Positions 49,015 through 62,462 of a stretch of 64,000 nucleotides of DNA are shown in pieces. The stretch comes from an uncultured Dehalococcoidia bacterium (GTDB lineage: Bacteria; Chloroflexota; Dehalococcoidia; Lucifugimonadales; G958296245). The DNA is taken from the NCBI GenBank assembly GCA_958296245.1, contig OY282458.1, positions 2,234,197 through 2,298,196 on the forward strand. The letters are read 5' to 3'. The position numbers and the translations under genes are program-made. The notes under the pieces were generated by a model. That model had not been told where the DNA came from. It saw only the letters and a program-made list of their open reading frames with translations, and did no database searches. The number at the start of each line of letters is the position of its first letter. Positions within the stretch are counted from its first letter, which is position 1.

Positions 49015-49091
49015 GGGCCAGTAGCTCAGCCGGTTAGAGCGCAGTCCTGATAAGACTGAGGTCCGTGGTTCGAGTCCACGCTGGCCCACCA
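49015..49091 (+). tRNA. tRNA-Ile (anticodon GAU) with an encoded CCA
   Basis: Hand-folded cloverleaf: acceptor GGGCCAG/CTGGCCC, D arm GCTC..GAGC, anticodon stem CAGTC/GACTG with loop CTGATAA, T arm CGTGG-TTCGAGT-CCACG, and 3' ACCA. Confidence 0.9.
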
Positions 49092-50668
49092 TTCTTGACG
49101 GTAGACAGTACCGGGCCGTGCAGAGCGATCTCCTCGACGTCCCTTCCGGGTATGGGGCTGTCGTCGGGCATGGGGATGGAGTAGTGGACGACGGCGTTGC
49201 CGGGGCTGACGACGACCTCCTTGACGAAGCTCTCAATGAAGGCTCTCGACTCGGTGAGCTCGCTGGTCTTGAGGAAGTCGCTCATGTCCTCTGCGTAGGC
49301 GGTGATGGTCTCCACGTCGTCCAGGACCACCCTGCGCTCCGAGAGGACGACCTTCGCCTCCTCGGCTGTGGCCTCCAGCCGCTCCCGGCGCTCCCTGTGA
49401 TCACGGATGCGAGGGGTTACGTCGGCCATGTCGAGGTCGGTGGTCTCAACCAGGTTGTACAGTCGGTCCAGCCTGCGCCGCACCTCCGCAAGCTCCGACT
49501 CGGCGGTCTGAAGCCTCTGGCGCTGCTCGTGGGCCACGCCGTCCATCTCCTCGTCCACCAGCCGCACCAGACCGCGGATGTTGCCCTCGGTCAGGATGTT
49601 GGAGCGAATCTGGCCGACGACCAACTCCTCGAAGCGCTTGGCGTTGAGCCTGGGGGCGTCGCAGGCCCCGCTGCCCCGCTTCATCAGCGACTGGCAGACG
49701 TAGTAGGAGAACCGGCCGCTCTTGGAGTCCTGGCCGGAGAGCGCCCGGTCGCACGTCCTGCACCTGACCAGTCCGCTGAGCAGGTAGGAGCTTCCGACCC
49801 TGCGGGGGTGAATCCTCCTGGGGGCGCGGGAGCGCAGTTTCCGGTTCACCCGGCGGAACTGGGATTTGGAGACGATGGCGGGGAACGCCCTCTCCACCCG
49901 CACCGGCTCGGCCTTGTCCTTGGCCTGGGCTCCCCAGATCAGCGTGCCCGTGTAGACCTCGTTCTTGAGGATGAAGTGGACGGTGTTCTTGGACCAGAGC
50001 TTGCCTGCGGGGCTGGCGAGACCTTCGTCGTTGAGGGTCTCAGCGATGGGCAGCATCCCCTTTCCGGCCTGCGCCATGTCGAAGATGCGCTCGACTACGG
50101 GCGACGTGTCCGGGTCGAGTTCCAGCGTGGGGCGTTTCTTGGGCCCGTCCTGCACCATGACCCTGTTGTATCCGTAGGGCGTCCTGCTGCCGATCCAGTA
50201 GCCCCGAGAGGCGGCCTCCCGCATCCCCCTCAGAACCTCCTGGGCGAGATTCTCGCTGTAGAACTCGTCCACGCTCTCGATGATTCCCTCAAGCAGCTTG
50301 CCGGTGGGGGTGTCGTCGGCCTGCTCGGTGATGGAGACGACTCGAACGCCCTTGCGCCGGAGCAAGGATTTGAAGGCGACGGCGTGCTCGCGCTTGCGTG
50401 TGAAGCGGGAGAACTTCCAGACCAGAATCTCCCTGAACGGAGCGTTGGTCTTGGTGGCCGCGTCGATCATCTTGCGGAACTCCGGCCTGTCGGCGATGCG
50501 CCCGCTCTCGGCCTCGTCCACGTACTCGCGGGCGACGAGGTACCCGTTCTTGCGTGCATAGTCCCTGAGCGCCCGCATCTGGGCGGCAACGGAAAGGTCC
50601 ACGTCCTGCCGGTCGCTGGATACTCTGGCATAGAGGGCCGCGGGCGTGTAGTCGGTCAGCTGGTTCAT
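49034..50668 (-). CDS. large serine recombinase (resolvase/invertase catalytic domain, recombinase domain and zinc-ribbon/coiled-coil)
   Basis: N-terminus AALYARVSSDRQ (catalytic Ser), ..DEAESG....RPEF..M, Cys cluster CRTCDRAL...YYVCQ...GSGAC, and a long helical region. ATG 50668 lies 8 nt after AAGGAGG. The last codons run antisense through the tRNA. Confidence 0.9.
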   Translation of the reverse strand: MNQLTDYTPAALYARVSSDRQDVDLSVAAQMRALRDYARKNGYLVAREYVDEAESGRIADRPEFRKMIDAATKTNAPFREILVWKFSRFTRKREHAVAFKSLLRRKGVRVVSITEQADDTPTGKLLEGIIESVDEFYSENLAQEVLRGMREAASRGYWIGSRTPYGYNRVMVQDGPKKRPTLELDPDTSPVVERIFDMAQAGKGMLPIAETLNDEGLASPAGKLWSKNTVHFILKNEVYTGTLIWGAQAKDKAEPVRVERAFPAIVSKSQFRRVNRKLRSRAPRRIHPRRVGSSYLLSGLVRCRTCDRALSGQDSKSGRFSYYVCQSLMKRGSGACDAPRLNAKRFEELVVGQIRSNILTEGNIRGLVRLVDEEMDGVAHEQRQRLQTAESELAEVRRRLDRLYNLVETTDLDMADVTPRIRDHRERRERLEATAEEAKVVLSERRVVLDDVETITAYAEDMSDFLKTSELTESRAFIESFVKEVVVSPGNAVVHYSIPMPDDSPIPGRDVEEIALHGPVLSTVKNGGPAWTRTTDLSLIRTAL

Positions 50669-50685
50669 CGGTGTGTCCTCCTTGC

Positions 50686-50883
50686 TCACTCCTGATCGTT
50701 CCGGCGGGCCTCGGCCCGTTGGCGGCGCTCTTGCCGCAGCCACGCCCGCTCCTGCATGTACAGGCGGATGGCCTCGCGGAGGAACTCGCTCATGTTGCGG
50801 CCTTCCTCCTTCAGCACCTGCTGCACCTGCTCGGCCATTTCCGGCGGCATGGAAAAGGTAATGGCCTTTCGGGTCGTGGGCAT
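50686..50883 (-). CDS. ribbon-helix-helix (CopG/Arc-like) DNA-binding protein
   Basis: KAITFSMPPEMAEQVQQVLKEEGRNMSEFLREAIRLYM is a beta-strand plus two helices. ATG 50883 follows GAGGAGG. It lies 17 nt upstream of the recombinase gene. Confidence 0.75.
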   Translation of the reverse strand: MPTTRKAITFSMPPEMAEQVQQVLKEEGRNMSEFLREAIRLYMQERAWLRQERRQRAEARRNDQE

Positions 50884-50904
50884 TCTCTCTTTTTGCCTCC
50901 TCAA

Positions 50905-50921
50905 GTATGACACAGTCATAC
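50905..50921. promoter_or_regulatory. perfect 17-bp palindrome (candidate operator) in the RHH/recombinase leader
   Basis: GTATGAC-ACA-GTCATAC, located between the RHH start codon and a TTGACA hexamer (minus strand, 50955..50950). Confidence 0.4.
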
Positions 50922-51129
50922 CCTTATCATGAACGTTCCTAGCCGCCGTTGTCAAGGGCCGGGCCTCTGTGAGTGGCAATCATATTCGGGTAGAATGGGT
51001 CCATAAACGTTCTGAGGAATGATTGACGGGGAGAGCGTCAACAACATCGTAAACTTCTCTCCCAGCCATTGTTGCAAATAGGACATTCGGTCGGGGTCAC
51101 CTCAAGATCCATAAGTGGGACATCATCCA

Positions 51130-52995
51130 ATGACGCAGAATCAGCGCGAAACACGAACCGTCCAACTTGAGAGTTGGGAAGTAGGTGGCGAGCTACTAGA
51201 TATTCTGTCCCGCGGCCTGTATTCAGATGCTAAAGACGCGCTCAGGGAGTACGTGCAGAATGGCGTCGATGCTGGAGCCAAACACATCTTGATTACGGTG
51301 GACGGAGCTCAGGTAGTTATCAGAGACGACGGAACCGGGATGGATGACGAGGGGATGCGAGCAGCTCGCAGATTCGGAATGTCTAACAAGAGTCCCCAGG
51401 ACATGGTGGGTTATCGTGGCATCGGAATATATTCTGCATTTGGTATATGCGAAGAGATGTCGATCACAAGCCACCAAGAAGGGATGCCAAACTTGGTAGG
51501 CTGGAGATTCCAGTTTGGTGAAATGCGCCGTTTGCTTGAAGCAGACAAGGCCTCTGACACTCGCCAAGGAATCGGACTGCCAGACCTCATGTATCAGTAC
51601 ACCGAATTATTCACTGAACCCTACCGAGGTAATGTTGACGATCACTTCACCGTCGTCGAGATTGACGGCATAGGTGAAGAATATAGAGCCCAACTAAACA
51701 ATGCCGCAGAAGTCAACGATTATCTTCTGAACACGATCCCCGTAGCCTTCTCAACAGAGGAAGGCTACGGTCGAACTGTCAACGATTGGTTAGCAGAACA
51801 TGTAGGACTGAATCCAGTTCGAATCTCCCTTCAGGTCGCCGATGAGAGTGAGTTTGATATCGAGCCATTAGTTGCTCAAGGCGTTTATGATGCCGAATCC
51901 GACTGGATAAAGGCGCCAGATGGCACCGCATTGGCCTTCGTTTGGTACACACTCTCCACTACTGGCAGGCAACTTGCCGTCCAGAACGGTTTATCTATGA
52001 GTGGATTTCTTTTGAAAGTGAAGGGCTTCACTTTGGGAGACCGCCTAGCGTTGAAAGGACTGTGGCCAGCTGTCGGTGGAGGAACATTGTACCACCACTA
52101 CACGGGAGAAGTTCACATTCTAGCGACTGACCAGTTGTACCCCAATGCAGCCCGGAATGACTTGGAATCGAACCCTGCTAGGCAGCTTTTCATAAAACAG
52201 GCGGAAGACTTCTTCTACCCGCTCAGCCGAAAAGCGCGGGTAATGCAGGCGAAGACAAGGGCAGCGCGACTGCTCGAAGGCATAGATGTCGCGATAGACC
52301 GTCTGAATGAACAGAAGAATGCACCAAACGTGAATGCGTACGAAATATACCGAAATAGCGAGAACTATCGAAAAGAACTAGAGAATGTGTTTCAGGAGAT
52401 TGAACGGCATTTGCGAAAGCCCCGTGGCAGGCCTCGCGTGCAACTCGACCAAGTCCAGCAAGACGCGTTGGATGAGGTCATCAAAAGGTTGCGTGGGTCC
52501 ATTAGTGAACTAGGGGGACTGGCAAGAGATGCGCAGCGGCGAACCCAGAAGCCCAAGCGGGAAGCGACGCAGCCTCCTCCGCAAGTAGGTTTCCTAAACA
52601 ATGCCCTCAGTGCTACGTTGCAGATGGCGGAGAAGACATCTGATCCTCGCTTTGCCGAGGCAGCGACGTTATTGAAGCCACTGGTCAATACCAGGTCAGT
52701 TCCACGGGCGATAGGAATTCTTGACGAGCTGAAGGCGTCGGGCATGGAACTAGGTGTTGAGGTAGAGTCCGCAAGAAGGGAGTTGCGGGCTTCAATAGGA
52801 TGGTCTCCTCTTGCACCTGTCTCGCTAGAGGAGGCTCTAGCTCAACGAGGAGTTTCCCTGGAAGGAGAGCGTGAGGAGCGCCTAGTCAGAGCTATTGACC
52901 GCGGCTTGGTAGTAGGTCTAGGTGGAAGAGGAGAGGCGTTTGAGACTGTGCTGCGAGCCGTTGCCGAAGGAGTCGCCGAGGAAATGGGGAACTAG
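51130..52995 (+). CDS. GHKL-superfamily ATPase (HATPase_c_3 / MORC-MutL-Hsp90-like), paralog 1
   Basis: Bergerat-fold motifs in order: N box ALREYVQNGVDA, G1 IRDDGTGMD, G2 GYRGIGIYSAFG. The C-terminal 400 aa or so are helical and uncharacterised. The start may be GTG 51115. Confidence 0.8.
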   Translation: MTQNQRETRTVQLESWEVGGELLDILSRGLYSDAKDALREYVQNGVDAGAKHILITVDGAQVVIRDDGTGMDDEGMRAARRFGMSNKSPQDMVGYRGIGIYSAFGICEEMSITSHQEGMPNLVGWRFQFGEMRRLLEADKASDTRQGIGLPDLMYQYTELFTEPYRGNVDDHFTVVEIDGIGEEYRAQLNNAAEVNDYLLNTIPVAFSTEEGYGRTVNDWLAEHVGLNPVRISLQVADESEFDIEPLVAQGVYDAESDWIKAPDGTALAFVWYTLSTTGRQLAVQNGLSMSGFLLKVKGFTLGDRLALKGLWPAVGGGTLYHHYTGEVHILATDQLYPNAARNDLESNPARQLFIKQAEDFFYPLSRKARVMQAKTRAARLLEGIDVAIDRLNEQKNAPNVNAYEIYRNSENYRKELENVFQEIERHLRKPRGRPRVQLDQVQQDALDEVIKRLRGSISELGGLARDAQRRTQKPKREATQPPPQVGFLNNALSATLQMAEKTSDPRFAEAATLLKPLVNTRSVPRAIGILDELKASGMELGVEVESARRELRASIGWSPLAPVSLEEALAQRGVSLEGEREERLVRAIDRGLVVGLGGRGEAFETVLRAVAEGVAEEMGN

Positions 52996-53004
52996 TGGAA
53001 GGCA

Positions 53005-54003
53005 ATGGCAGGAAGATATGGTCATGGGATGACGCTTTACTACTCGAGTGACGACAAGGATCTTGTGAGGGATAAGTTTGATCTGCCTTTAGTCGAGGCA
53101 GTTGCTCGAAGGAAAGAAGGGAAGTTACGATATTTTGGGTTGCCCGGCGAGGATGCTCTGGACTTGCAGAGCTGGGGTAGCCTTTGCGACTACGTAGCAG
53201 CCGTGGAATTCTCCCGGGAGAGATTCCAGACGGTCAAGCATGTACTAAGAACACAATTTGGTAGCATAAGACATAGAGCTCACCTTGGCGATGTAGACAA
53301 GGTGATTCTGAGAAACAGGAGTGGTATACCACCCACGGAGTTCGTTTCAACTACCAACCGTCCGGGAGCTGGGTACATTTGGGATTTTGATGTTATCTAC
53401 TTGGACTATTTTGGGAAATTTCTGCCATATGAACGCGGTGGCGCTGAAGTTCGGAACAGAGCAAATGCTCTCAGAAGGCTGTTTGCACCCGACCGCCAGG
53501 ATGGATGGCAGCCGTGGCTTCTAATGCTCACAGTCGAGTCACGGCTATTCGGGCCTAATGATAGAGAACAGATGCGGCAGTTTCTTTCTGCGTCAAAGGA
53601 AGAGTCAGACGACGAGACTCAAAAGGCTATTGACTTCCTTCTAGACGAAACAGTCAGTACAAGGGAGCAGGCAGCGAGGCTTGTTCATGGCACGTTGAGC
53701 TACATCCTTGCTGTGGCAGCGTCCAATTCGGACGTACGGGTTTACCCCAAGCCCACCATGCTGTATCGCGGGGCCAACAACACCCCTATGCTTCACTTTG
53801 CATATGAGGTGACGCCAGCCGGATTGTTGTCAGGGTCTCAGCCAGTGTTACCCTTACTGAGGTCACCACTACTCCGAGTAAGGGATGACCATGCTGAGCC
53901 CTGGTTTGAGTTACTATCTTCACAACCGCCCGGTCAGACTAATTCAAGCCTGAGAGCGACATTGGACTTCCTGGATGAAGGACAGATCGAGCAAATCGTA
54001 TAG
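53005..54003 (+). CDS. hypothetical protein, partner of GHKL paralog 1
   Basis: It begins 9 nt after the GHKL stop, behind GGAAGG. No family was recognised. The short motifs RYFGLPGEDALD ... AAVEF ... LGDVD ... FDVIYLDYFG occur in the order of Rossmann methyltransferase motifs I-IV, which is only a weak resemblance. Confidence 0.6.
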   Translation: MAGRYGHGMTLYYSSDDKDLVRDKFDLPLVEAVARRKEGKLRYFGLPGEDALDLQSWGSLCDYVAAVEFSRERFQTVKHVLRTQFGSIRHRAHLGDVDKVILRNRSGIPPTEFVSTTNRPGAGYIWDFDVIYLDYFGKFLPYERGGAEVRNRANALRRLFAPDRQDGWQPWLLMLTVESRLFGPNDREQMRQFLSASKEESDDETQKAIDFLLDETVSTREQAARLVHGTLSYILAVAASNSDVRVYPKPTMLYRGANNTPMLHFAYEVTPAGLLSGSQPVLPLLRSPLLRVRDDHAEPWFELLSSQPPGQTNSSLRATLDFLDEGQIEQIV

Positions 54004-54032: not shown

Positions 54033-55055
54033 TCATCCTCCGCTCTGCCTTTCGATTCGATCAACTGCTTCTCGGATTTTGCGAAGCTCAAAGAGGCATT
54101 TCTTGCGCTGTTCTGAATCCATGTGTTTCATATCAGGAATCAGGTCCTTGTCCAGAAGTCCTTCTCGGAATCGCTTGAAACGGTTGAGCCACATGTTGTC
54201 GACTCCGCGGTCTCTGGCGCTTTCGAATGCTCGTTCAAAACTCCCTTCCCCGGACATCAGTATCTTGATTGGCTGAGGACCTGCTTTGGTCACGTCAAGG
54301 ACTTTGACCAGTTTATCTCTGACGTCTCTTGCCGTTTCAATCTCGTCGCTCTTGATCTTCTCGACGACGACTTCATCCAAGCCTGGGTTCATCTGTCGAG
54401 CCTTCTTTACGGCGTTTGACTTCAAGTACTCGTCGTAATAGCTCCACCTGTTTACGTCGTTCTCGTCGTGGTCGACCATGAATTGGTATGTGCTAACGAG
54501 GTGATTCACCAGTCGACTTGAAAGACCCATTTCTTCAGACATTGCTTGAATGCTGACGCCATGCATGACATTACGACGATATAAGTAACCTGCTTGCTCG
54601 TATGGGGCCCAGTCCTTCCTTCCGATGATGTGGTACTCGCCGAGCAGCGCAAACACAAGCTTCTCGCTTATGTCGGCAGGCAACAGCCGAACTTTGGCTT
54701 TGCCCCACCTAACGGCATCTAACCTGGCGAGTTCGCGACATGCGGCTAATCTGCTGTTCCCCTCCAGTACTACAAGGTCACCATCCCTTACCAACATCGG
54801 GTCTGTAAGGCCACCGTTTGCCCTTATTGATTGGATGAGTTGCTTGACGTGGTCCATCCTGTTTAGCCGGTGGTGGATCTCTTCTTGAGACGGCACATCA
54901 TGCTGCCTCTGTATGAACGAGTAAATCCTTGGGTTATCGGAATAGAAACTCAGATCAATGACCGGAAGGTAACCGTTCTTGACAGGTACCTCCTCGCCTC
55001 CGAGTGTAAGGGAGTCGTTGACCCACACATCCTCAGCCATCATCTGTGTCTCCAA
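54033..55055 (-). CDS. ParB/Srx-fold N-terminal domain protein, paralog B (last gene of the operon)
   Basis: ..SDNPRIY.. and LVVLEGNSRLAACREL (GxxR-type ParB box). It is collinear with the gene at 56966 (GRKDWAPYEQAGYLY versus GPRQWDPYSKAKYLDY). Confidence 0.7.
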   Translation of the reverse strand: METQMMAEDVWVNDSLTLGGEEVPVKNGYLPVIDLSFYSDNPRIYSFIQRQHDVPSQEEIHHRLNRMDHVKQLIQSIRANGGLTDPMLVRDGDLVVLEGNSRLAACRELARLDAVRWGKAKVRLLPADISEKLVFALLGEYHIIGRKDWAPYEQAGYLYRRNVMHGVSIQAMSEEMGLSSRLVNHLVSTYQFMVDHDENDVNRWSYYDEYLKSNAVKKARQMNPGLDEVVVEKIKSDEIETARDVRDKLVKVLDVTKAGPQPIKILMSGEGSFERAFESARDRGVDNMWLNRFKRFREGLLDKDLIPDMKHMDSEQRKKCLFELRKIREAVDRIERQSGG

Positions 55056-55060
55056 CTGGT

Positions 55061-56530
55061 CTATGCATTCAATATGGCCCTCAGGATGTCTCCGAATTCG
55101 TAGGACATCTCCTTCTGATAGGTCTCCCTGTCGATGTCACCCTGTGCGAGCTGCGCTGCTACCCGCTTCGAGTGAAGCAACGCCTCGACCCATTCGTCAA
55201 TCGAGTCGCGCATAATCAGGTTGTGGACATGGCAGACCCTGTCCTGGGATATTCGGTGGATTCTGTCCTGAGCCTGTAGATAGTCGTCCAAGCTGAACAG
55301 CCGGTCGTAGAAGATAACGTGGTTCGCCACGGTCAGTGTCAGGCCTTCCTTGGCGGAGCCTGGAGTGGCAATGAACACCTTGGCACTTGGCTCATCAAGG
55401 AAAGTCTGGATAGCATCGGTCTGCTCCCTTGTGCTCAGCATCCCGTGGACCTGCTGAGGGTTGTGCCGGCGCAGTACTCTTGATAGCCACTGGACGTTCT
55501 CAACGAACGACGTCCAAACTATGCACTTCTCTCCACTCTTGACTATCGAGGAGACCAACTCAATTAGAGTCTCCAGCTTCCCGGGCTCGACCTGGTAGCT
55601 CGGGTCTATCAGAGTGGGGTTCGACGCGACTTGTACTAGCCTGAGCAGACGCTTCAACACCACGTCCGACTCGTCGGCCACGAGCCGCCCGTCCTGGAAG
55701 ATGATTGCCCGAAGGGACTCCCTTACCTGTCGGTACATCTCTTGCTGCCGAGGTTCCCATTCGGTCACCACGGGGTGAATGACTTTCTCGGGCAAGCTAA
55801 TCTCGGCACTTTCCTTAGTCTCCCTCACGGCAAAGGCCGATATTGAGTGGAATATGCGCTGTAACTGAACCTCCAAGGCCGCTTGCCTGCGGTCTACTCC
55901 GGCCAGGTCGTTGGAAAGGGCCACAGAGCGCTTGAATTCCCCAAAGTCATCGCCAAGCGACGCGCCGTGGTCGAGGAACTTGATCTGCGACCAGATGTCG
56001 TGCGGGCGATTGGAAACCGGGGTTCCTGACATGATCACTCGCTTGGTAAACATAGGCGCGAGACCGAGGAACACCTGGGTGAGAGCAGCATCGGGGTTCT
56101 TGATCTTGGTTGACTCGTCGAGAATCACTCCCACATTCCTGGTCCTTAGAAACAGGTGCATTCGTTCCTCTTCGGCCCTCACGGCCTCGTAGTGAGCGAG
56201 CATGACGCGGGCGGGACTGTTGAAGACGAAGAAGTTGCCCCCGCGGCTAGTGGTCAGGACCCGAGGAATGAGTTGGGAGTGAGAAGCAAGTTCCTTCTGC
56301 CAGTTGTGAAGGAGCCCCTTCTTGACAACAATCAAGGCGGTATCCAAGAGCCGTTGAGACAGCCAGTAGACAAGGAGGTCTATCGCAACCTTCGTCTTGC
56401 CCAATCCCTGCTCATGGAATATGGCAGCATACTCGAGGTCCTTGACGGCATCGACAGCCTCCAACTGGTATGCGAACGCCTCGTGTTTCAGGGTAAGGTC
56501 CGGCTCCCTCTTTAGCGTCAGCTTCTGCAA
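55061..56530 (-). CDS. SNF2-family helicase/translocase (compact, 489 aa)
   Basis: Motif I EQGLGKTKVAI, motif II VILDESTKIKN, SGTPVSN, helicase-C block GLTLTVANHVIFYD and motif VI QAQDRIHRISQ. The TTG start overlaps the upstream gene by 13 nt. Confidence 0.85.
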   Translation of the reverse strand: MQKLTLKREPDLTLKHEAFAYQLEAVDAVKDLEYAAIFHEQGLGKTKVAIDLLVYWLSQRLLDTALIVVKKGLLHNWQKELASHSQLIPRVLTTSRGGNFFVFNSPARVMLAHYEAVRAEEERMHLFLRTRNVGVILDESTKIKNPDAALTQVFLGLAPMFTKRVIMSGTPVSNRPHDIWSQIKFLDHGASLGDDFGEFKRSVALSNDLAGVDRRQAALEVQLQRIFHSISAFAVRETKESAEISLPEKVIHPVVTEWEPRQQEMYRQVRESLRAIIFQDGRLVADESDVVLKRLLRLVQVASNPTLIDPSYQVEPGKLETLIELVSSIVKSGEKCIVWTSFVENVQWLSRVLRRHNPQQVHGMLSTREQTDAIQTFLDEPSAKVFIATPGSAKEGLTLTVANHVIFYDRLFSLDDYLQAQDRIHRISQDRVCHVHNLIMRDSIDEWVEALLHSKRVAAQLAQGDIDRETYQKEMSYEFGDILRAILNA

Positions 56531-56973
56531 TCAGTCGACCCCCCTGATGTGGTTGTAGCACCCCGCCAGTTCATTTCTGACAGTACGACGGTTTCAACTT
56601 CAGTCAATTCCTCTCTAATGCGAAAGTGAGTGAGTAATGACCGGGCGAGTCGCTCAATGGGCCATGGCACCGCCAGGACGAAGGCCGAGCCCTCTGCCAT
56701 TCCGCATCTTCTTAGGAAGGCTGTCACTTGAGCCTCCGTGTGCGAGTTCTCCAGGTCCCCCATGCTCTTGGCTTCCCCAATGACCACTCGTCCCTGTTCG
56801 CCGAGCATGGTATAGGCGTCAGGGACGTACCCGTCAATGGGAGGTGGCCGATTCAGAGACCGACGGCCTACGGAGTCGGTGAGAACACGTTCTCCCCGTC
56901 CCTCACAGAATCTATCGGAGATATAGCTGTGAAGTATGGCAACCAAGTTCGAGTGTTCTTGTGATTCAGGCAT
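56518..56973 (-). CDS. PD-(D/E)xK-fold nuclease-like protein
   Basis: GYVPDAY followed 13 residues later by VIGEAKS, which is the PD...ExK arrangement. It is small (151 aa) and overlaps both neighbours (8 nt and 13 nt). Confidence 0.65.
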   Translation of the reverse strand: MPESQEHSNLVAILHSYISDRFCEGRGERVLTDSVGRRSLNRPPPIDGYVPDAYTMLGEQGRVVIGEAKSMGDLENSHTEAQVTAFLRRCGMAEGSAFVLAVPWPIERLARSLLTHFRIREELTEVETVVLSEMNWRGATTTSGGSTDCRS

Positions 56974-57994
56974 TCGTAGTGGAGGGCGAGGCGATAAGCC
57001 TACAGAGTTCGACCAACCGGTCCCTGGCCTCGGTTAGAGCGTGATTCTTGGGAGTATTGAGATCTTCGCGGAGGCGAAGGAAGTCTGTGTAGCCCATCTT
57101 GGCTATTCTGTTCGATAGCGCGTCGGCCAGTTGGACCAATGTGGCTTCTTCCAGGGCCTCTACCGTAGAAGGGCTGTCCAGGACCTTCTCAGCTTCCCGT
57201 GCTCCGTGCGTCAAGAACACGCCTCGGGCCTGTGAATTGGTGAGGATTGCCGGGAGCTTTCTGACACGGTCGCTTGGATACAGAATCTGGTCTTTCACCC
57301 ACCTGGCGAAGTCTGTCTTCGTGTGGCCGGAGGTTACGAGAGCTTCTTGGACCCTTGGAGCTTGCATTTCAAGAAAGGCGCTGAACCGGGTCGGGTCAAA
57401 CTGGTCGTCACTCGCTAGGAGTGGCCGGTAATGGTCCTCCATGTCGTTGTAGGCGTCGATGAATCGGTGCACCTCGGTCCTCTGACCGCCACAGAAATCG
57501 ATGATCTGATCGGTTGTCAAGTGCTCCGAGTTACTGAGGTAGTCGAGGTACTTGGCTTTGGAGTAAGGGTCCCACTGTCTTGGACCGACCAGGTGGGCTT
57601 GCAGCCGAATGGCATCGATTTCCTTCCTGTCGAGTTGGTCGTAGACGATCGCCGGAATCTCGCCCCACCTACCATCGACATCGTCCCGCTTGAACTGGCG
57701 GTAGATCAATGCACGCGTATTCCCCTCGATGACTACTAGCTTGTTCACGGTTTCTCGGTTGACCAGAATGGGATGGATTAGCCCTCCATGCGTTCTGATG
57801 GATGCCCTTAAGCTCTGGAAGGTGGTCGTGCTCTCCCCCTGCTCGTAGTTGGCGGCGCCAAGAGCCAGACTCATCTGTTCATCAGTTACCTGTCCATCAT
57901 ACATCTCAATGTAGCGCGCCACCCGGGGATTGGACGCGTCGAGCACAAGGGTGTCGACTGGAAGCATCTCGAATTGACCATTTCTTGCAGCCAT
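56966..57994 (-). CDS. ParB/Srx-fold N-terminal domain protein, paralog A
   Basis: LPVDTLVLDASNPRV, IHPILV and LVVIEGNTRALIY. SD GGGAGG lies 7 nt upstream of ATG 57994. Confidence 0.7.
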   Translation of the reverse strand: MAARNGQFEMLPVDTLVLDASNPRVARYIEMYDGQVTDEQMSLALGAANYEQGESTTTFQSLRASIRTHGGLIHPILVNRETVNKLVVIEGNTRALIYRQFKRDDVDGRWGEIPAIVYDQLDRKEIDAIRLQAHLVGPRQWDPYSKAKYLDYLSNSEHLTTDQIIDFCGGQRTEVHRFIDAYNDMEDHYRPLLASDDQFDPTRFSAFLEMQAPRVQEALVTSGHTKTDFARWVKDQILYPSDRVRKLPAILTNSQARGVFLTHGAREAEKVLDSPSTVEALEEATLVQLADALSNRIAKMGYTDFLRLREDLNTPKNHALTEARDRLVELCRLIASPSTTNA

Positions 57995-58034
57995 ACTGTT
58001 GCCTCCCTAGCAAATCTTTAGCCGAACAGTGCGC

Positions 58035-59636
58035 CTAGCTTGGCGTCGGCGCCCCAGTGTCATTCAGTGGATGCTGGTCCTGGGTATCACTCGCGGTCCT
58101 TTGATTAGGGGCTATGGCCGAGCCATATCGTCCCACCTTGGACGCTTCAGCAAACACCATTTCAATCAATTCTCTCGCGTAGCTAGGTGAGGGCGCGAGA
58201 GTCGCCAAGGCCCCGAATACCTTCTGGTAGACCACAGCCTCCGCAGGAGGGATGTCGCCAAACCTCTGCGGCTCGGTCTCGACCGAAAAGTTGCTTAGTT
58301 TGTCCTCGGCACTATCGAGCCTCTCAAGATTGCCGTTATCGAGGTTTCTCCTACCGACGCCTTTGCGAATCTCCTGGACTTCCTGCAACGCCTGCCGAAC
58401 CAAACCGGCCGCGTCTTTCGAAGTGAGATACCCAGACGTTGCTAAGGCATAGAGGTCCTCGATGTTGCTCAGTGCAGAGAGAGTCTTCCTAGCGCGGTTG
58501 CGAGCCGTGGATTCTCGCCTGCACCGTGTGGCGATGCTGCGCAGAATGGGGGTCAGTTGGTTTTCGAGGTTACGCAGATGTGGTCCGGGTTCAAAATAGT
58601 CACGCCTGGCGTTGGGAATGATACGTGCGTCGACGATGTGTATCTCCCCAACGCACCAACGGTTGAACCGCTCCTCTGCAAATAGGTGGTCGAACGCCGC
58701 CTCGCCGCCAACCTGTATATTCCCCACTCTGGCCCTGATGCCACGCACTCGCTGTTCTTTTGGAATCGCGCCCAGGTAAGATGAGTGCGCGACCCAACCA
58801 ACGGCCGCATCCCCAGCCTCGTCGACTCTGGGTATGCGGACTACCTGAAACTCAGTGAATTCGGCATCCCTGTTTGCCGAGAGTTGGACCGACTCCCCGT
58901 ATGGTCTCAAAATCGGGTCCGGGTCGCCTTCTAACAGCACTTCCAACGTCAGTGGCGCCTCATCTGCATGGAACAGCCCTTCGACACTGTCGGCAAAGGG
59001 AAAGTTTGAATCTATGGGAACCGGGCACACTTCGCCAACGTAGTCGTGCACCGCGTCACGATTGAGCAGCACTCCTGTGGAGTGACGCGCTACATCTCCG
59101 ACTTCGACCTCGAAGAAGTGCTCAGGATGGTCCGACCCTGGCAAGGTTTCCACGACGACACAGTCGAGAATAGCTTCTTCGAGCTCAGAGCCCGTGGAGG
59201 TCAACTCGGGAAGCTGGTCACTATGCCACGTGATTCGGGTTACCGCTTGGTCCTTATGGGCACGAGTAGTAAATGAAACTCTCTTCGCGAACGCAAGGCC
59301 GACGAGCCGGCCGACGCCACGGAACCCTCTGTCGGTCCCCAATGTCTTATCACTGCGTCCGATGGGCAAAAGTCGGTCAAGGGCTTCCTCGCGGGACAGG
59401 CCAGGGCCATTGTCTAGAATCCGGATTCGGCGTTCAGTGCGGTCGACATCGATTATTACTCTCGCTCGACCGGGTAGCTCTCTGGTAGCGACGGCGTCGG
59501 CCGCATTCTGTAAGTATTCCCTATACATGGATAGCGGGTCGTGGTACATACCAGTTGTCACAAGTCCTAGAAGGCCCGCACCCGAGAGCGCGGGCGTTTC
59601 CTGAGTGCCGAGGGAATTGGTGGTATGCGTACTCAA
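58035..59636 (-). CDS. GHKL-superfamily ATPase (HATPase_c_3-like), paralog 2
   Basis: N box MYREYLQNAADA, G1 ILDNGPGLS, G2 GFRGVGRLVGLAF. The TTG start overlaps the radical SAM stop (TTGA). Confidence 0.8.
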   Translation of the reverse strand: MSTHTTNSLGTQETPALSGAGLLGLVTTGMYHDPLSMYREYLQNAADAVATRELPGRARVIIDVDRTERRIRILDNGPGLSREEALDRLLPIGRSDKTLGTDRGFRGVGRLVGLAFAKRVSFTTRAHKDQAVTRITWHSDQLPELTSTGSELEEAILDCVVVETLPGSDHPEHFFEVEVGDVARHSTGVLLNRDAVHDYVGEVCPVPIDSNFPFADSVEGLFHADEAPLTLEVLLEGDPDPILRPYGESVQLSANRDAEFTEFQVVRIPRVDEAGDAAVGWVAHSSYLGAIPKEQRVRGIRARVGNIQVGGEAAFDHLFAEERFNRWCVGEIHIVDARIIPNARRDYFEPGPHLRNLENQLTPILRSIATRCRRESTARNRARKTLSALSNIEDLYALATSGYLTSKDAAGLVRQALQEVQEIRKGVGRRNLDNGNLERLDSAEDKLSNFSVETEPQRFGDIPPAEAVVYQKVFGALATLAPSPSYARELIEMVFAEASKVGRYGSAIAPNQRTASDTQDQHPLNDTGAPTPS

Positions 59637-61255
59637 ACCAGTTGCGTGCCTTTGATTGCAAGTGCTTCGTCATGGTCGAACAGGCCGGCATCCTCGACGA
59701 CCTCGTCCTCCTCAAGGTAAGCGCCATGCCCGGCCATTTCCCTGATGAGCTGATGACCGTTCGTCTTCGCGTCGTCCTTGGTATCTAGTCCGTGAAATGT
59801 CATCAACTGTCGGAGTTGTCGGTCGACCGTTTGGTCGTTCGCCAGCTCCTGAAAATGTCTTGGCCCCATTCCATTCCCGTTGGACGGATTGGCCAGAAGA
59901 CGCACGAACTCCTTCTCCTGGAAATCTGAAAGGCGCTGACGAAGCGAGTCGTACTCCTCCCTCTGGGCTCTCCCTTCTCCGTCTTCAAAGTACTCTCGGT
60001 GGAATATGAAGGCGTGCGGCAACCTGAGCAACCTCTCGAATTCTTCTGCATTGTCGCCATAGGCCCTCAGAAAGAAGGATGGGCTTCCGCTGACAACGCC
60101 CTTGGTTGCCTGGAGCATGAGCTGGAACGAACGGAGGTAGTATCGGTTCCAATTCTTGCCCACATGTGACCGGTCCTTCAACGTCACGGGTTGGTACCGC
60201 ATCGGAAAGGACCAGATCCGAATCCCCAACTCCTCATTCAAGTCGATGTTGAGACGCATTCGCTGGTAAAGGTCCGTTGGAGTATCCATGAAGTTGTACA
60301 GCATGTAGTTCGACAGCGAAGTGATCTGATTGTCAGCCGCCATGCGTATCGACCGCTCATAGACCTTCCTGACGCCAATATGGTCGAAGGCGATTCGAAG
60401 GGGACTGATGCAGATGGTGGCCATCTCGCGCAGGAACATTTCTGACTTGGCGAGAATTCGTGCGTCCACCCCTTGATTGAAGTCCACCCGGCGCCTAACC
60501 GGCCTGTTGCCGTCGCGTGTCAGCTTCGCGCCTGGCGTGAAGCCCAGGTCGCGAATCTCGGCAATCACCTCCTTGAATCTAGCCGACGCTGTGATGTTGT
60601 TGTCCATGAGCACGAGGTCCTTCTTCTCCCCGTGCCGTTTGCTGACTTCTTCAACCAGATTGAAAAGGGGTGGCATCTCACGTTGGGCGCCCTCCAATTT
60701 CGGAACCCCGCAGAATGAGCAGCTTCTAATGCATCCACGCGAGGCGTATCCGAAATATGCATCATGTACTGGGTATCTGTAGTCGATGTGATCGAGGATT
60801 CCATAGTCGGGCACCATTTCCTCGATTGGAGTGCCGGTCAAGTCGTCAGCGCCAAAATCGTAGTCGTCGGCCGACAAAGCAAGAGACGCTGCGGGAGGAC
60901 CGTCGAGCAGGCCCCTTACGAAGCGTACGCCAGCCCAGCGGGGTTCATTCAGGAATGCGTCAAGCATGAGCGAAACCGCGATGCCTCCCACAAACACGCG
61001 CTCAGCCTGACCTCCTGCAGCCCGTATGGCGAAGTCTATTGCCGAGGCGGTCCGATTCCACTCGAAGGTGAAGAGGGTGGTCACATAGACTCGGTCCCAA
61101 GCTTGGTTCAACACCTCTTGGTCTTCGCCCTTAATGAACTTGACGTGGTCGCCTCGGCCAAGTGGTCCGTGGTAGGCGGAGAGTTTCATCAAGCCCAATG
61201 GGGGGTACTTGTTTGGGTAGCCGGGTTCAATTAGTAGGACCTGCCTGGAAGGCAT
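59633..61255 (-). CDS. radical SAM enzyme with an N-terminal B12-binding-domain-like region
   Basis: CxxxCxxC cluster motif in YASRGCIRSCSFCGVP. N-terminus VLLIEPGYPNKYPPLGLMKLSAY resembles the flavodoxin/B12-like domain of class B-type radical SAM proteins. The C-terminal 150 aa or so are acidic and unassigned. Confidence 0.8.
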   Translation of the reverse strand: MPSRQVLLIEPGYPNKYPPLGLMKLSAYHGPLGRGDHVKFIKGEDQEVLNQAWDRVYVTTLFTFEWNRTASAIDFAIRAAGGQAERVFVGGIAVSLMLDAFLNEPRWAGVRFVRGLLDGPPAASLALSADDYDFGADDLTGTPIEEMVPDYGILDHIDYRYPVHDAYFGYASRGCIRSCSFCGVPKLEGAQREMPPLFNLVEEVSKRHGEKKDLVLMDNNITASARFKEVIAEIRDLGFTPGAKLTRDGNRPVRRRVDFNQGVDARILAKSEMFLREMATICISPLRIAFDHIGVRKVYERSIRMAADNQITSLSNYMLYNFMDTPTDLYQRMRLNIDLNEELGIRIWSFPMRYQPVTLKDRSHVGKNWNRYYLRSFQLMLQATKGVVSGSPSFFLRAYGDNAEEFERLLRLPHAFIFHREYFEDGEGRAQREEYDSLRQRLSDFQEKEFVRLLANPSNGNGMGPRHFQELANDQTVDRQLRQLMTFHGLDTKDDAKTNGHQLIREMAGHGAYLEEDEVVEDAGLFDHDEALAIKGTQLV

Positions 61256-61318
61256 CAGCAGCCCCCCAGCCTGGCCATTGTAAAGGTCAAGTCAGTTGTA
61301 CGACGTTGTTCTAGCACG

Positions 61319-61537
61319 CTATGCACCCTTACTGAGAGAGATGCTTGGTGTCAAGGTACTCTCTCGGGCTGTTACCGGCTTGACTTGCGCGTCAGGGGCA
61401 CTCTCGTCGAGATGGTCCCGGATTAGCCGAGCTATCAATGTGCTCTTCTTGAAGCCCCTTTCTTGGCAGTAGGCGTCGAATCTGTCGAACTCCTCAGAGT
61501 CCAGAAGAACGCTGATTTTCACACGCTTGCGGTTCAT
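61319..61537 (-). CDS. ribbon-helix-helix (CopG-like) protein, first gene of the operon
   Basis: KRVKISVLLDSEEFDRFDAYCQERGFKKSTLIARLIRDHL. ATG 61537 is preferred over the track start at 61579. Confidence 0.7.
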   Translation of the reverse strand: MNRKRVKISVLLDSEEFDRFDAYCQERGFKKSTLIARLIRDHLDESAPDAQVKPVTARESTLTPSISLSKGA

Positions 61538-61557
61538 ATCTGCACCTTTCGTTGTTA

Positions 61558-61586
61558 TTGGTAGCTCACTTCGCCTCACAAGTCAA
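61558..61586 (-). promoter_or_regulatory. candidate sigma-70-like promoter of the RHH/radical-SAM operon
   Basis: On the minus strand: TTGACT (61586..61581), a 17-nt spacer, then TACCAA (61563..61558), about 20 nt upstream of ATG 61537. The -10 hexamer is weak. Confidence 0.3.
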
Positions 61587-61596
61587 TACCTTTGCG

Positions 61597-61614
61597 CAGT
61601 TGTGCGCACAATTG
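61597..61614. promoter_or_regulatory. palindrome (candidate operator) in the divergent intergenic region
   Basis: CAGTTGTGCGCACAATTG has a perfect 12-bp core TTGTGCGCACAA (61600..61611) and is 16/18 symmetric overall. It sits just upstream of the -35 candidate above. Confidence 0.4.
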
Positions 61615-61694
61615 AAATGGTCGCTTGCGTCTGTGAGAGGGCCTGTACATCGGGTAAAATGAGGGTCACGGACCTTGCTATAGGGGGCTTCCTC

Positions 61695-62051
61695 GTGGGG
61701 ACTTTCAAGTGGCCGGTACGGATATCCAGCATGGACGACCAACAGGCTAAGGATATGGAGGCGACGGTGGACACCGGCGCATCATTCACCACGCTCCGCT
61801 CCCGTCTTCTGGGGGAGTTGGGCATCGAAGCTACGGGCAAGCGGGGGTTCCTGTTGGCGGACGGACGGCGGGTCGAGATGGCCTACGGGGAGGCCCGCGC
61901 AACGACCAACGGCGATAGTGTGACGACGACCGTGGCCTTCGGTGAGAACGAGGCGCCTCCGTTGTTGGGAGCCTACACGCTGGAGGAGTTGGCCCTGGCG
62001 GTGGACCCGCAGGCCCAACGGCTGGTTCCCACCCACATGATCTTGTACTAG
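61695..62051 (+). CDS. retropepsin-like (clan AA) aspartic protease, stand-alone, paralog 2
   Basis: VDTGAS catalytic motif. It is collinear with the gene at 16507..16863 from VRISSMD to LVPTH(L/M)I(M/L)Y. GTG 61695 is chosen by alignment with the paralog's start. Confidence 0.75.
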   Translation: MGTFKWPVRISSMDDQQAKDMEATVDTGASFTTLRSRLLGELGIEATGKRGFLLADGRRVEMAYGEARATTNGDSVTTTVAFGENEAPPLLGAYTLEELALAVDPQAQRLVPTHMILY

Positions 62052-62177
62052 GACCGGCAAAGTTTCGCCGGCCACGTCGCCTCCTGCCGGTTGAAGCAGT
62101 GGCCGAGGCCCAAGACCAGGGACAGTTCCAAATCCGCTTGCCCCGGACCGCGGATGCTCGGAGATGATAGCGAAAGT

Positions 62178-62462
62178 ATGCACGCGAATGACCCGATAGA
62201 CGTCTCTTACCCGGAGCTGTTGCCGAAGGACTTCGGCGAGCGGCTGGCGCGGCTCGTGGAGCTCGCTGGCCTGTCGTGGGAGGAGTTCGCCGAGCGGCTT
62301 GGCGTCGGGTGTGACCGCGTGACTGAGTGGCGAGGAGGCGAGGTCCCCACGGGCGGGGAAGTGTGGCACATCATGCGCTTCGCGTTGTTGGTCCCCGGCG
62401 GAACGGAGCTGATGCTTCCCCAGAAAGCGGGTCCAAACGAGGGCGGAGAGCACCTTCCATGA
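62178..62462 (+). CDS. helix-turn-helix (Xre-like) DNA-binding protein
   Basis: FGERLARLVELAGLSWEEFAERLGVGCDRVTEWRGG is an HTH_3-type pattern. The start is uncertain (track start 62091). Confidence 0.6.
   Translation: MHANDPIDVSYPELLPKDFGERLARLVELAGLSWEEFAERLGVGCDRVTEWRGGEVPTGGEVWHIMRFALLVPGGTELMLPQKAGPNEGGEHLP

Follow-up and report, generated by a model that had tools for sequence, protein, structure and literature searches.

A mobile gene cassette with a radical SAM–GHKL ATPase core and exchangeable partner modules in an uncultured Dehalococcoidia bacterium

Genes of the cassette and their products

We analyzed a 64,000-nt stretch of DNA from an uncultured Dehalococcoidia bacterium (hereafter the window) and identified in it a cassette of tightly packed genes, all on the minus strand, that runs from 61537 to 54033. 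The cassette is built around a radical S-adenosylmethionine (SAM) enzyme, designated rSAM, and a GHKL ATPase. This core is accompanied by genes for two ParB-like proteins, a nuclease-like protein and an SNF2 helicase, together designated module A, and by a gene for a small ribbon-helix-helix (RHH)-like protein. The core recurs with different partners in about ten phyla, and we tentatively interpret it as part of an anti-invader system. A first-pass annotation of this DNA had proposed seven open reading frames (ORFs), all of which were present in the ORF listing at exactly the coordinates given there:

61319..61537, minus strand: small RHH-like protein, 72 aa (ATG at 61537 preceded by GAAAGG; longest ORF to 61579)
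59633..61255, minus strand: rSAM, 540 aa, core component (ORF with CX3CX2C motif; phrog_9298)
58035..59636, minus strand: GHKL (Bergerat-fold) ATPase, 533 aa, core component (HATPase_c_3)
56966..57994, minus strand: ParB/Srx-superfamily protein A (ParB-A), 342 aa, module A (weak ParB matches and invariant motifs)
56518..56973, minus strand: minimal PD-(D/E)xK nuclease-like protein, 151 aa, module A (invariant motif and AlphaFold2 topology)
55061..56530, minus strand: SNF2-family helicase/translocase core, 489 aa, module A (PF00176, Helicase_C)
54033..55055, minus strand: ParB/Srx-superfamily protein B (ParB-B), 340 aa, module A (weak ParB matches and invariant motifs)

The gene junctions were confirmed as well, with overlaps of 4 nt (rSAM/GHKL), 8 nt (ParB-A/151-aa protein) and 13 nt (151-aa protein/SNF2) and gaps of 63, 40 and 5 nt. 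TTG starts are listed for the GHKL, SNF2 and ParB-B genes; the true start codons of the cassette are not fixed, since the ORF listing defaults to the earliest possible start. In rSAM, the GHKL ATPase, both ParB-like proteins and the nuclease-like protein, the active-site motifs are intact. The domain assignments made earlier for these proteins and for SNF2 held, but the RHH-like protein had no significant match.

At its N-terminus, the rSAM has a flavodoxin/B12-domain-like domain; a core with the CX3CX2C motif, a helical C-terminal domain and a conserved acidic tail follow. The closest profile to rSAM was phrog_9298 ("radical SAM domain protein", 2.3e-38), and it scored 19.6 bits against Pfam PF04055, below the 29.5-bit cut-off. 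The three Cys residues of the motif (C175-x3-C179-x2-C182) are invariant in 71 close and 42 distant homologs, placing the protein in the radical SAM superfamily. No further Cys was conserved family-wide among the 42 representatives, which extend down to ~33% identity, and this argues against an auxiliary Fe-S cluster and hence against MiaB-type, SPASM-type and sulfur-inserting chemistry. C282 was considered as a catalytic Cys and rejected, as it is kept only in the close clade (10% of the distant representatives). A methylthiotransferase of the MiaB/RimO type was also ruled out: the RimO/MiaB matches cover only the cluster loop (16–19 bits against cut-offs of 251–357), and there was neither a TRAM match nor a conserved N-terminal auxiliary-cluster Cys. 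In the AlphaFold2 model of rSAM (pLDDT 72, pTM 0.69), the N-terminal domain is flavodoxin-like, the core is of the alpha/beta type and the C-terminal domain is helical; in Foldseek searches, the model matched four viral models of two-domain rSAM/MtaB-like proteins (E 2.5e-5 to 3e-4, probability 1.0). The B12-like N-terminus suggested in the first-pass annotation was echoed only weakly, in two relatives, P0229 and P0273, which matched PF02310 at ~1e-4, below the cut-off; the window protein itself had no match to this domain.

The acidic tail of rSAM, (E/D)E-x-VEDAGL(F/Y)D (59633-59720, residues ~515-530), follows a variable linker in 21 of 21 diverse orthologs and is missing from distant family members; by its sequence, it looks like a putative docking peptide. 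More than 7000 relatives of rSAM were found in databases. Among the matches listed, none was named or carried a precomputed Pfam domain, and the top 120 were all at least 82% identical. The family forms 1648 clusters at 50% identity (E <=1e-3), and the clade of at least 63% identity falls in a single cluster. In the extra parts of the longer family members (~620-820 aa), no Pfam domain was recognized, and these parts do not resemble the other cassette proteins.

The core GHKL ATPase matched HATPase_c_3 at 1.4e-9, above the Pfam cut-off. Its Bergerat motifs, i.e., ExxxNxxD (N box), DxGxG and the GxxGxG lid, are all invariant, as are residues E40, N44, D47, D75, G77, G79, G104, G107 and G109 in 20 orthologs, which assigns the protein to the GHKL superfamily. 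By sequence it is nearest to the N-terminal domain of HtpG/HSP90 (NCBIfam HSP90 family, 1.5e-10; ortholog profile against HtpG, 3.5e-10) rather than to MutL, for which the match was weak (0.005), or MORC. A full HSP90/HtpG chaperone was rejected, as only the first ~140 residues align and the score was 40 bits against an NCBIfam cut-off of 455.

Matches of the two ParB-like proteins to the ParB/Srx superfamily were weak but consistent and included ParB-like PHROG families; none reached a curated cut-off. ParB-A matched ParB_N (0.006) and the PADLOC models PDC-M38A (1.2e-9) and PD-Lambda-5_A (2e-4), and the profile of its orthologs matched the ParB structure 4umk in the Protein Data Bank (PDB) at 0.004; NPR and GNTR motifs are invariant. 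ParB-B, in which NPR and EGNSRLA motifs are invariant, matched TIGR00180 (4.5e-5), PDC-M38A (5.5e-8) and phrog_3694 (2e-13). No other member of the cassette evolves as fast as ParB-B does outside its ParB core. In comparisons of the window with related loci (L001-L017), ParB-B alleles are mosaic and form two groups of ~83-91% and ~68-74% identity, a split that is independent of the other five genes. The differences are located outside the ParB core (residues 80-160), suggesting that a specificity-like region has undergone recombination; since the alleles swap, ParB-B may contribute specificity.

The 151-aa protein had no match in hidden Markov model searches. H7, P51-D52, E67-A-K69, D73 and Q82 are invariant or at least 90% kept in 56 homologs, and the AlphaFold2 model (pLDDT 85, pTM 0.81) has an alpha-beta-beta-beta-alpha-beta topology. 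The best Foldseek matches of this model were PD-(D/E)xK folds (CdiA-CT, EcoT38I, PaqCI, Mus81 and Can2), none of them significant (E >=0.015), and the ortholog profile matched Hjc with an E value of 1.4. The invariant D52 and E67-x-K69, together with the predicted topology, fit a PD-(D/E)xK nuclease-like protein. The SNF2 protein contains PF00176 (SNF2-rel_dom, 2.6e-25) and PF00271 (Helicase_C, 5.7e-15), both above cut-off, which places it in the SNF2 family, and has no fused nuclease. In PADLOC, its helicase part matched ZorD best (9.3e-46), then DpdE (up to 5e-35) and, more weakly, DrmD; its NCBIfam matches were all far under the family cut-offs.

Conserved linkage and exchangeable partners

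One genome per species was scanned, yielding 114 rSAM relatives, of which the best 80 were kept with 10-kb flanks; the gene content of these loci, which are anchored on rSAM, was obtained by tblastn and ORF clustering. The 80 loci (rSAM 63-99% identical) represent about ten phyla, with carriers in Dehalococcoidia/Chloroflexota, Acidimicrobiia, Nitrospirales, Acidobacteriota, Ca. Binatia, Latescibacterota, Spirochaetia, Gemmatimonadota, Thermodesulfobacteriota, and Alpha- and Gammaproteobacteria. Several record names (Ca. Spongiihabitans, Ca. Poriferihabitaceae) indicate sponge symbionts. The GHKL gene was located directly 3' of the rSAM gene, on the same strand, in 78 of the 80 loci, with a 4-nt overlap in 26. 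SNF2 and ParB genes were present in 53 loci, upstream of rSAM in 36 and downstream of GHKL in 17; the downstream order is typical of the Dehalococcoidia-type clade, including the window, and the upstream order was found in most other lineages. A ParB gene lies directly 5' of rSAM in 36 loci; in 17 of these, the ParB stop and the rSAM start share a 4-nt overlap.

Where module A is missing, another partner occupies its place. One example is a HerA module detected in 13 loci, in which genes for a 361-aa protein, HerA (7.8e-34 to PDB 7f6d) and an extra GHKL protein follow one another. The ~361-aa protein (L044:5609-6694 and 11 other loci) is always upstream of HerA, and two DGS motifs were seen in it by eye; its profile matched nothing in the PDB. 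On the basis of its position beside HerA and of these two motifs, it may be NurA-like. Another example, found in 9 loci, is a DndB/DpdB-HEPN protein of ~770 aa (Pfam DndB 1e-12, PADLOC DpdB 1.7e-17, HEPN_Swt1 5e-5). A further partner, which is also present in the window, is a two-gene pair:

51115..52995, plus strand: GHKL2 ATPase, 626 aa, first gene of the pair (HATPase_c_3)
53005..54003, plus strand: 332-aa protein paired with GHKL2, second gene of the pair

GHKL2 is a paralog of the core GHKL ATPase (HATPase_c_3, 1.2e-15), and its N-terminus matches the BbrUII/HgiDII restriction enzymes at 2.4e-13; PADLOC matches were to REase_II and TmtA. The 332-aa protein, which is always paired with GHKL2, matched the NCBIfam PP_RS20740 family at 1e-10, below the cut-off, and nothing in Pfam or the PDB, profile searches included. 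In the window, the pair and the cassette are convergent and 29 nt apart. Of the 80 loci, 11 have a pair of GHKL2 and a ~335-aa protein next to rSAM-GHKL; in L008, L015, L028, L031 and L033, no other partner is present. The pair of the window (51115-54003), which falls just beyond the coordinates of the first-pass annotation, probably belongs to the system as an additional partner module.

Only two loci (L013 and L077) had no partner, and partners were swapped among rSAMs more than 82% identical. The seven-gene operon of the first-pass annotation is thus tightly packed and operon-like, but it is no fixed unit: rSAM and GHKL form the core, and module A is one of at least four swappable partners. 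The variable part is in every case of the nuclease/translocase type, mostly with proteins of the ParB superfamily. The underlying proposal that these genes form a system was supported by other genomes: gene order is kept in dozens of them, and the genes co-occur down to 24-45% rSAM identity. In comparisons with four orthologous cassettes, dN/dS was 0.05-0.07 for rSAM, 0.05-0.11 for ParB-A, ParB-B and SNF2, and 0.12-0.23 for GHKL and the nuclease, i.e., all six genes are under purifying selection (0.05-0.23). Median identity to the window proteins was 70% for rSAM, 50% for SNF2, 49% for GHKL, 39% for ParB-A, 37% for the nuclease and 31% for ParB-B. With its conserved order and purifying selection, the gene set is more than a chance neighborhood.

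More distant relatives were detected in IMG/VR contigs, in which the six genes are all present and rSAM identity is 40-62%. The six genes also recur in L162, which contains an 807-aa rSAM (45% identical) with genes for a 330-aa ParB-like, a 138-aa, a 490-aa SNF2 and a 340-aa ParB-like protein upstream and a 471-aa GHKL protein downstream; the mobile-element genes DUF932, RadC and ERF adjoin. Beside another rSAM relative, 46% identical, the GHKL gene is immediately upstream instead of downstream. When the search was anchored on ParB-A, all seven viral-collection loci had rSAM beside the module. In L164, ParB-A and SNF2 are 57% and 61% identical to those of the window and rSAM only 37%, and in L169:6222-16570, on a low-GC contig, a 24%-identical rSAM is directly followed by genes for a ParB, a 137-aa nuclease-like protein, SNF2 and a second ParB. 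The identities in these two loci imply that the modules recombine, yet the tie of rSAM to the module persists. In L169, a reverse-transcriptase-like ORF upstream and an S24-peptidase-like ORF downstream were recognized by eye only. L161:1-9813 may represent a further architecture of the rSAM family; here, a 44%-identical rSAM lies downstream of a DpdJ/BrxH/DruE-like helicase of >1190 aa and of unannotated proteins of 1018 and 386 aa.

The rSAM family also includes short proteins of ~290-300 aa (phrog_9298), 24-38% identical to the window rSAM, which were found in L108:9962-10837 and ~65 other IMG/VR loci (L093-L160). Their genes are located between RusA/replication genes and terminase in temperate-phage-like contigs and are solitary, with no GHKL, ParB or SNF2 neighbors. 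The phage and window proteins share the N-terminal domain and the RGCxRxCxFC and VDFNQGxDAR motifs; a ~100-residue insert and the C-terminal helical domain are absent from the phage proteins. Phages often carry orphan DNA-modification genes in the region between replication and packaging genes.

Mobility, island setting and the RHH gene

The cassette is horizontally mobile. Its closest relative, L021, is 98.3% identical at the nucleotide level over 54045-61314 only, and the flanks differ. In L021, a DDE transposase gene (L021:8771-9772) is inserted between the RHH and rSAM genes, so that the cassette is cut off from its presumed promoter. L001 and L002 share with the window a larger block (50.9-61.8 kb) that includes GHKL2 and the 332-aa gene. 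In the window, the following features mark the island border and the regulatory end of the cassette:

49015-49091, plus strand: tRNA-Ile, island border
49034-50743, minus strand: large serine recombinase (Resolvase, Recombinase and Zn_ribbon_recom domains)
50686-50979, minus strand: CopG-type RHH protein (RHH_1, 6e-8)
61600-61611: 12-bp perfect palindrome, candidate operator 5' of the RHH gene

GC content is 0.50-0.575 over 51-62 kb against ~0.60-0.70 elsewhere in the window, falling from 0.63 to 0.50 at 51 kb; the AT-richer block in a tRNA/recombinase island that had been described before is therefore borne out by the GC trough, the tRNA-Ile gene and the serine recombinase. The recombinase ORF (minus strand) terminates within tRNA-Ile (plus strand), to the left of which are housekeeping genes such as that for citrate synthase. 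A repeat scan detected no direct repeat of the tRNA 3' end within 48.9-64 kb; the island thus probably extends beyond the end of the window, or the repeat is too short to detect. Among 88 ORFs flanking the system elsewhere, PADLOC (E <=1e-8) identified PDC-S01 (three times), GajB, AbiEii, TmtA, DRT reverse transcriptases and PDC-S04, and a TIR gene is also an immediate neighbor in another genome. These flanking genes are compatible with a defense-island setting.

The 12-bp palindrome noticed earlier near the RHH gene is indeed present and perfect (TTGTGCGCACAA, 61600-61611), with 16 of 18 positions matched over 61597-61614. A TTGACT hexamer (61586-61581, minus strand) follows 13 nt downstream of it and the RHH ATG (61537) ~60 nt downstream, and we infer that the palindrome is a candidate operator for the RHH gene. 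A consensus promoter scan called no promoter at the palindrome/TTGACT site; promoter and terminator counts were at or below shuffle expectation, so that these scans are uninformative for the region. The RHH-like protein had no Pfam, NCBIfam or PADLOC match, and its best RHH matches in the PDB, the Rv0298 antitoxin (E 0.75) and ParG (E 1.2), were not significant; a beta-alpha-alpha pattern in its sequence is plausible by eye. Its gene was found in only three of the 80 loci, L001, L002 and L021, which are the three closest relatives. The RHH protein is probably a local regulator outside the conserved system, and together with the palindrome it would provide transcriptional control specific to this sub-lineage.

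Two ORFs are divergent from the cassette, one for a retropepsin-like aspartyl protease (61527-62462, plus strand; Asp_protease_2, 1.6e-5) and one with an HTH_31 domain. L001 has conserved counterparts of both, and L021 of the protease ORF (84-87%). In the form called, the protease ORF extends at its 5' end into the RHH gene, which is encoded on the other strand.

Known systems and possible functions of the cassette

In agreement with the earlier remark that no named system has this composition, PADLOC, NCBIfam, Pfam and PHROGs scans of the cassette and its neighbors matched no named system and returned only generic domain or helicase-core matches. No description of an rSAM-GHKL-ParB-SNF2 system was found in the literature open to full-text search, which is incomplete, most subscription journals lying outside it, so that a prior description is possible. 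Dpd, Dnd/Ssp, DISARM, BREX, Zorya, Mza, Tiamat, pVip and Ophion were each considered and rejected, as their defining genes are missing. Likeness to named systems is confined to the SNF2 core, the GHKL N-terminal domain and the ParB N-terminal domain.

Like the cassette, Dpd is a multi-gene island in which a DNA-modifying enzyme is helped by an ATPase (DpdA with the ParB-like DpdB), with SNF2-type DpdE, helicases and nucleases, and the DndB/DpdB-HEPN protein that replaces module A beside the same rSAM-GHKL core matches DpdB and DndB. However, the cassette contains no DpdA (tRNA-guanine transglycosylase), DpdC or preQ0 pathway, its putative writer being rSAM with GHKL; similarity to DpdE is limited to the SNF2 helicase core (NCBIfam, 33 against 500 bits), and the cassette ParBs do not match DpdB. 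Dnd/Ssp systems combine a conserved modification core with interchangeable restriction modules (DndFGH, PbeABCD, SspE), and the cassette is likewise composed of a core and modules. DndB is a ParB-superfamily protein associated with Dnd (core and modules reviewed in PMC10853773). In contrast to these systems, the cassette has no homologs of DndA, C, D or E or of SspA-D, and rSAM lacks features of auxiliary clusters and sulfur transfer.

Type I Zorya (ZorD) and DISARM (DrmD) resemble the cassette in having an SNF2 motor with a nuclease function. They differ in that ZorA, ZorB, ZorC, DrmA, DrmB, DrmC and a methylase are absent from the cassette, and in that the cassette nuclease is a separate 151-aa protein and no fused Mrr-like domain. 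NCBIfam scores of the SNF2 protein were 85 for ZorD against a cut-off of 1500 and 25 for DrmD against 950. The signature genes of DISARM, BREX and Zorya (DrmABC; PglZ, PglX, BrxC; ZorAB) were missing from 50-64 kb, where the only matches were helicase-core matches to DrmD, BrxH and ZorD.

In pVip and Ophion (OpnABC), as in the cassette, an rSAM is the signature component of a defense locus. pVip is a stand-alone rSAM defense that acts on nucleotides. In Ophion, the rSAM likewise acts on nucleotides, with PHP and phosphoribosyltransferase (PRTase) partners (bioRxiv 10.1101/2025.09.30.679545). Both differ from the cassette in having another rSAM family and no helicase-nuclease module; rSAM of the cassette matched 0 PADLOC families, and no PHP or PRTase gene was found near the cassette among ORFs and Pfam matches. 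Operons that link prokaryotic GHKL/MORC-type ATPases to nucleases and to superfamily-II/SNF2 helicases have been described (Iyer, Abhiman & Aravind 2008, PMC2292703), but that survey reports no radical SAM or ParB association, unlike the cassette. Finally, both ParBs, and their L162 orthologs too, match PDC-M38A and, weakly, PD-Lambda-5_A; the PDC-M38A matches span only the N-terminal ParB-like region of a 715-position model, and no other cassette gene fits PDC-M38/PD-Lambda-5. We tentatively regard the cassette as a multi-gene, probably modification-linked helicase-nuclease defense; its core has no named precedent.

Our preferred reading, which we hold tentatively, is that of a modular, horizontally mobile anti-invader cassette, in which rSAM and the HSP90-like GHKL ATPase, coupled to it in translation, would carry out self-marking and the SNF2/PD-(D/E)xK/ParB module would be the restriction arm. 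In this scheme, the GHKL ATPase would load or position rSAM on DNA, and rSAM would place a covalent self-mark on host DNA via SAM-derived radical chemistry. The ParB-like proteins (ParB/DUF262-like NTPases) may scan DNA, with ParB-B possibly supplying specificity, and unmarked DNA, when encountered, would be degraded by the SNF2 motor and the PD-(D/E)xK nuclease. The solitary phage rSAMs could then be orphan protective writers. Self-marking is favored by the resemblance to Dnd/Ssp and Dpd of a conserved enzyme and ATPase core with swappable, DNA-attacking modules and with proteins of the ParB/DndB/DpdB type.

Several observations weigh against this reading. Nothing in the sequence of rSAM points to DNA as its substrate, and its model had no significant PDB match in Foldseek and no detectable DNA-binding domain. 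The extreme conservation of rSAM fits a small-molecule substrate equally well, and none of the cassette components is similar to known readers of DNA, modified or unmodified. The rSAM-GHKL pair is not strictly obligate: L169 has no detectable GHKL and L161 none within its contig. In addition, the comparative loci are anchored on rSAM, the frequency of module A without rSAM having been measured in 7 viral contigs only, and the defense signal of the flanking ORFs has no matched control. A more specific version is somewhat more doubtful: rSAM-GHKL may write a new carbon-centered DNA mark (e.g., cobalamin-dependent C-methylation or an adenosyl-type adduct on base or sugar) that serves as a restriction-modification-like self-mark, with swappable effector modules, spread by horizontal transfer through host-associated bacteria, and phage rSAMs acting as counter-defense "orphan writers".

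A less probable explanation also involves defense, with rSAM-GHKL making an antiviral or signaling nucleotide derivative upon infection (viperin- or CBASS-like) or directly damaging invader nucleic acid through its radical chemistry, and with the partners acting as sensors or co-effectors. A conserved generator with variable partners is typical of signaling systems too, nucleotide-acting rSAM defenses exist (pVip, Ophion), and the far higher conservation of rSAM than of every partner would be expected for a fixed small-molecule substrate; the lack of a detectable auxiliary Fe-S cluster or DNA-binding domain in rSAM points the same way. However, rSAM shows no similarity to the viperin and Ophion enzymes, with no PADLOC match, and no ligand-sensing domain (SAVED, CARF, STING) was recognizable in the partner modules. 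ParB/DndB/DpdB-type proteins and helicases are, moreover, typical of DNA-modification systems, and solitary phage homologs are easier to explain as protective modification genes.

Somewhat less likely again, rSAM-GHKL, the ParB-nuclease-SNF2-ParB set (ZorD/DpdE-like) and the GHKL2 pair could be two or three independent systems that share islands, given that defense genes generally cluster in this way. The order and orientation of the modules vary (upstream, downstream, and inverted in L016, L043 and L164), the SNF2 module is missing in 27 of the 80 loci, and module lineages recombine separately, as in L164. The linkage itself weakens this possibility: in 17 of the 36 upstream cases, a 4-nt overlap of stop and start joins the modules, the association holds from 99% to 24% rSAM identity and across ~ten phyla, rSAM-GHKL is almost never alone (a partner was present in 78 of the 80 loci), and rSAM was present in 7 of 7 ParB-anchored loci.

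We consider it improbable that the cassette serves a mobile element, through DNA hypermodification or anti-restriction for island or prophage DNA or through ParB-based maintenance, partition or exclusion. In favor of such a role, it is always on islands or mobile elements (tRNA and serine recombinase, IMG/VR contigs, DUF932/RadC/ERF in L162), phages encode short rSAM relatives, and a part in plasmid conflicts has been described for ParB-superfamily proteins (Maindola et al. 2014, as cited in PMC10853773). Against it, the loci are chromosomal, on multi-megabase contigs of many metagenome-assembled genomes (MAGs), no ParA or centromere-type arrangement was found (ten proteins scanned), and the nuclease, the SNF2 motor and the alternative HerA/HEPN effectors indicate attack, not maintenance. 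The mobile context itself does not discriminate, since defense systems typically ride mobile elements too. ParABS partition was rejected specifically, as there is no ParA among the ten proteins scanned (50.7-61.6 kb), the neighbors are a nuclease and a helicase, the repeats detected in 48.9-64 kb are short direct repeats in low copy number that form no array, and the ParBs carry GN(T/S)R where a canonical ParB has GERR; the plasmid-partition or chromosome-maintenance role that the first-pass annotation had named as an alternative thus found no support.

If the cassette is a defense system, as we tentatively propose, it would add rSAM chemistry and a GHKL ATPase to the short list of defenses with complex DNA marking (Dnd/Ssp, Dpd, BREX, DISARM) and could lead to a natural DNA modification not described before. 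As a large and unannotated family that is unusually conserved across phyla, the rSAM family presents a well-defined biochemical target, and one core with at least four effector modules offers natural experiments on which part senses and which kills. The cassette is frequent in uncultured MAGs of many phyla, some with sponge-symbiont names, and may matter for phage–host dynamics there.

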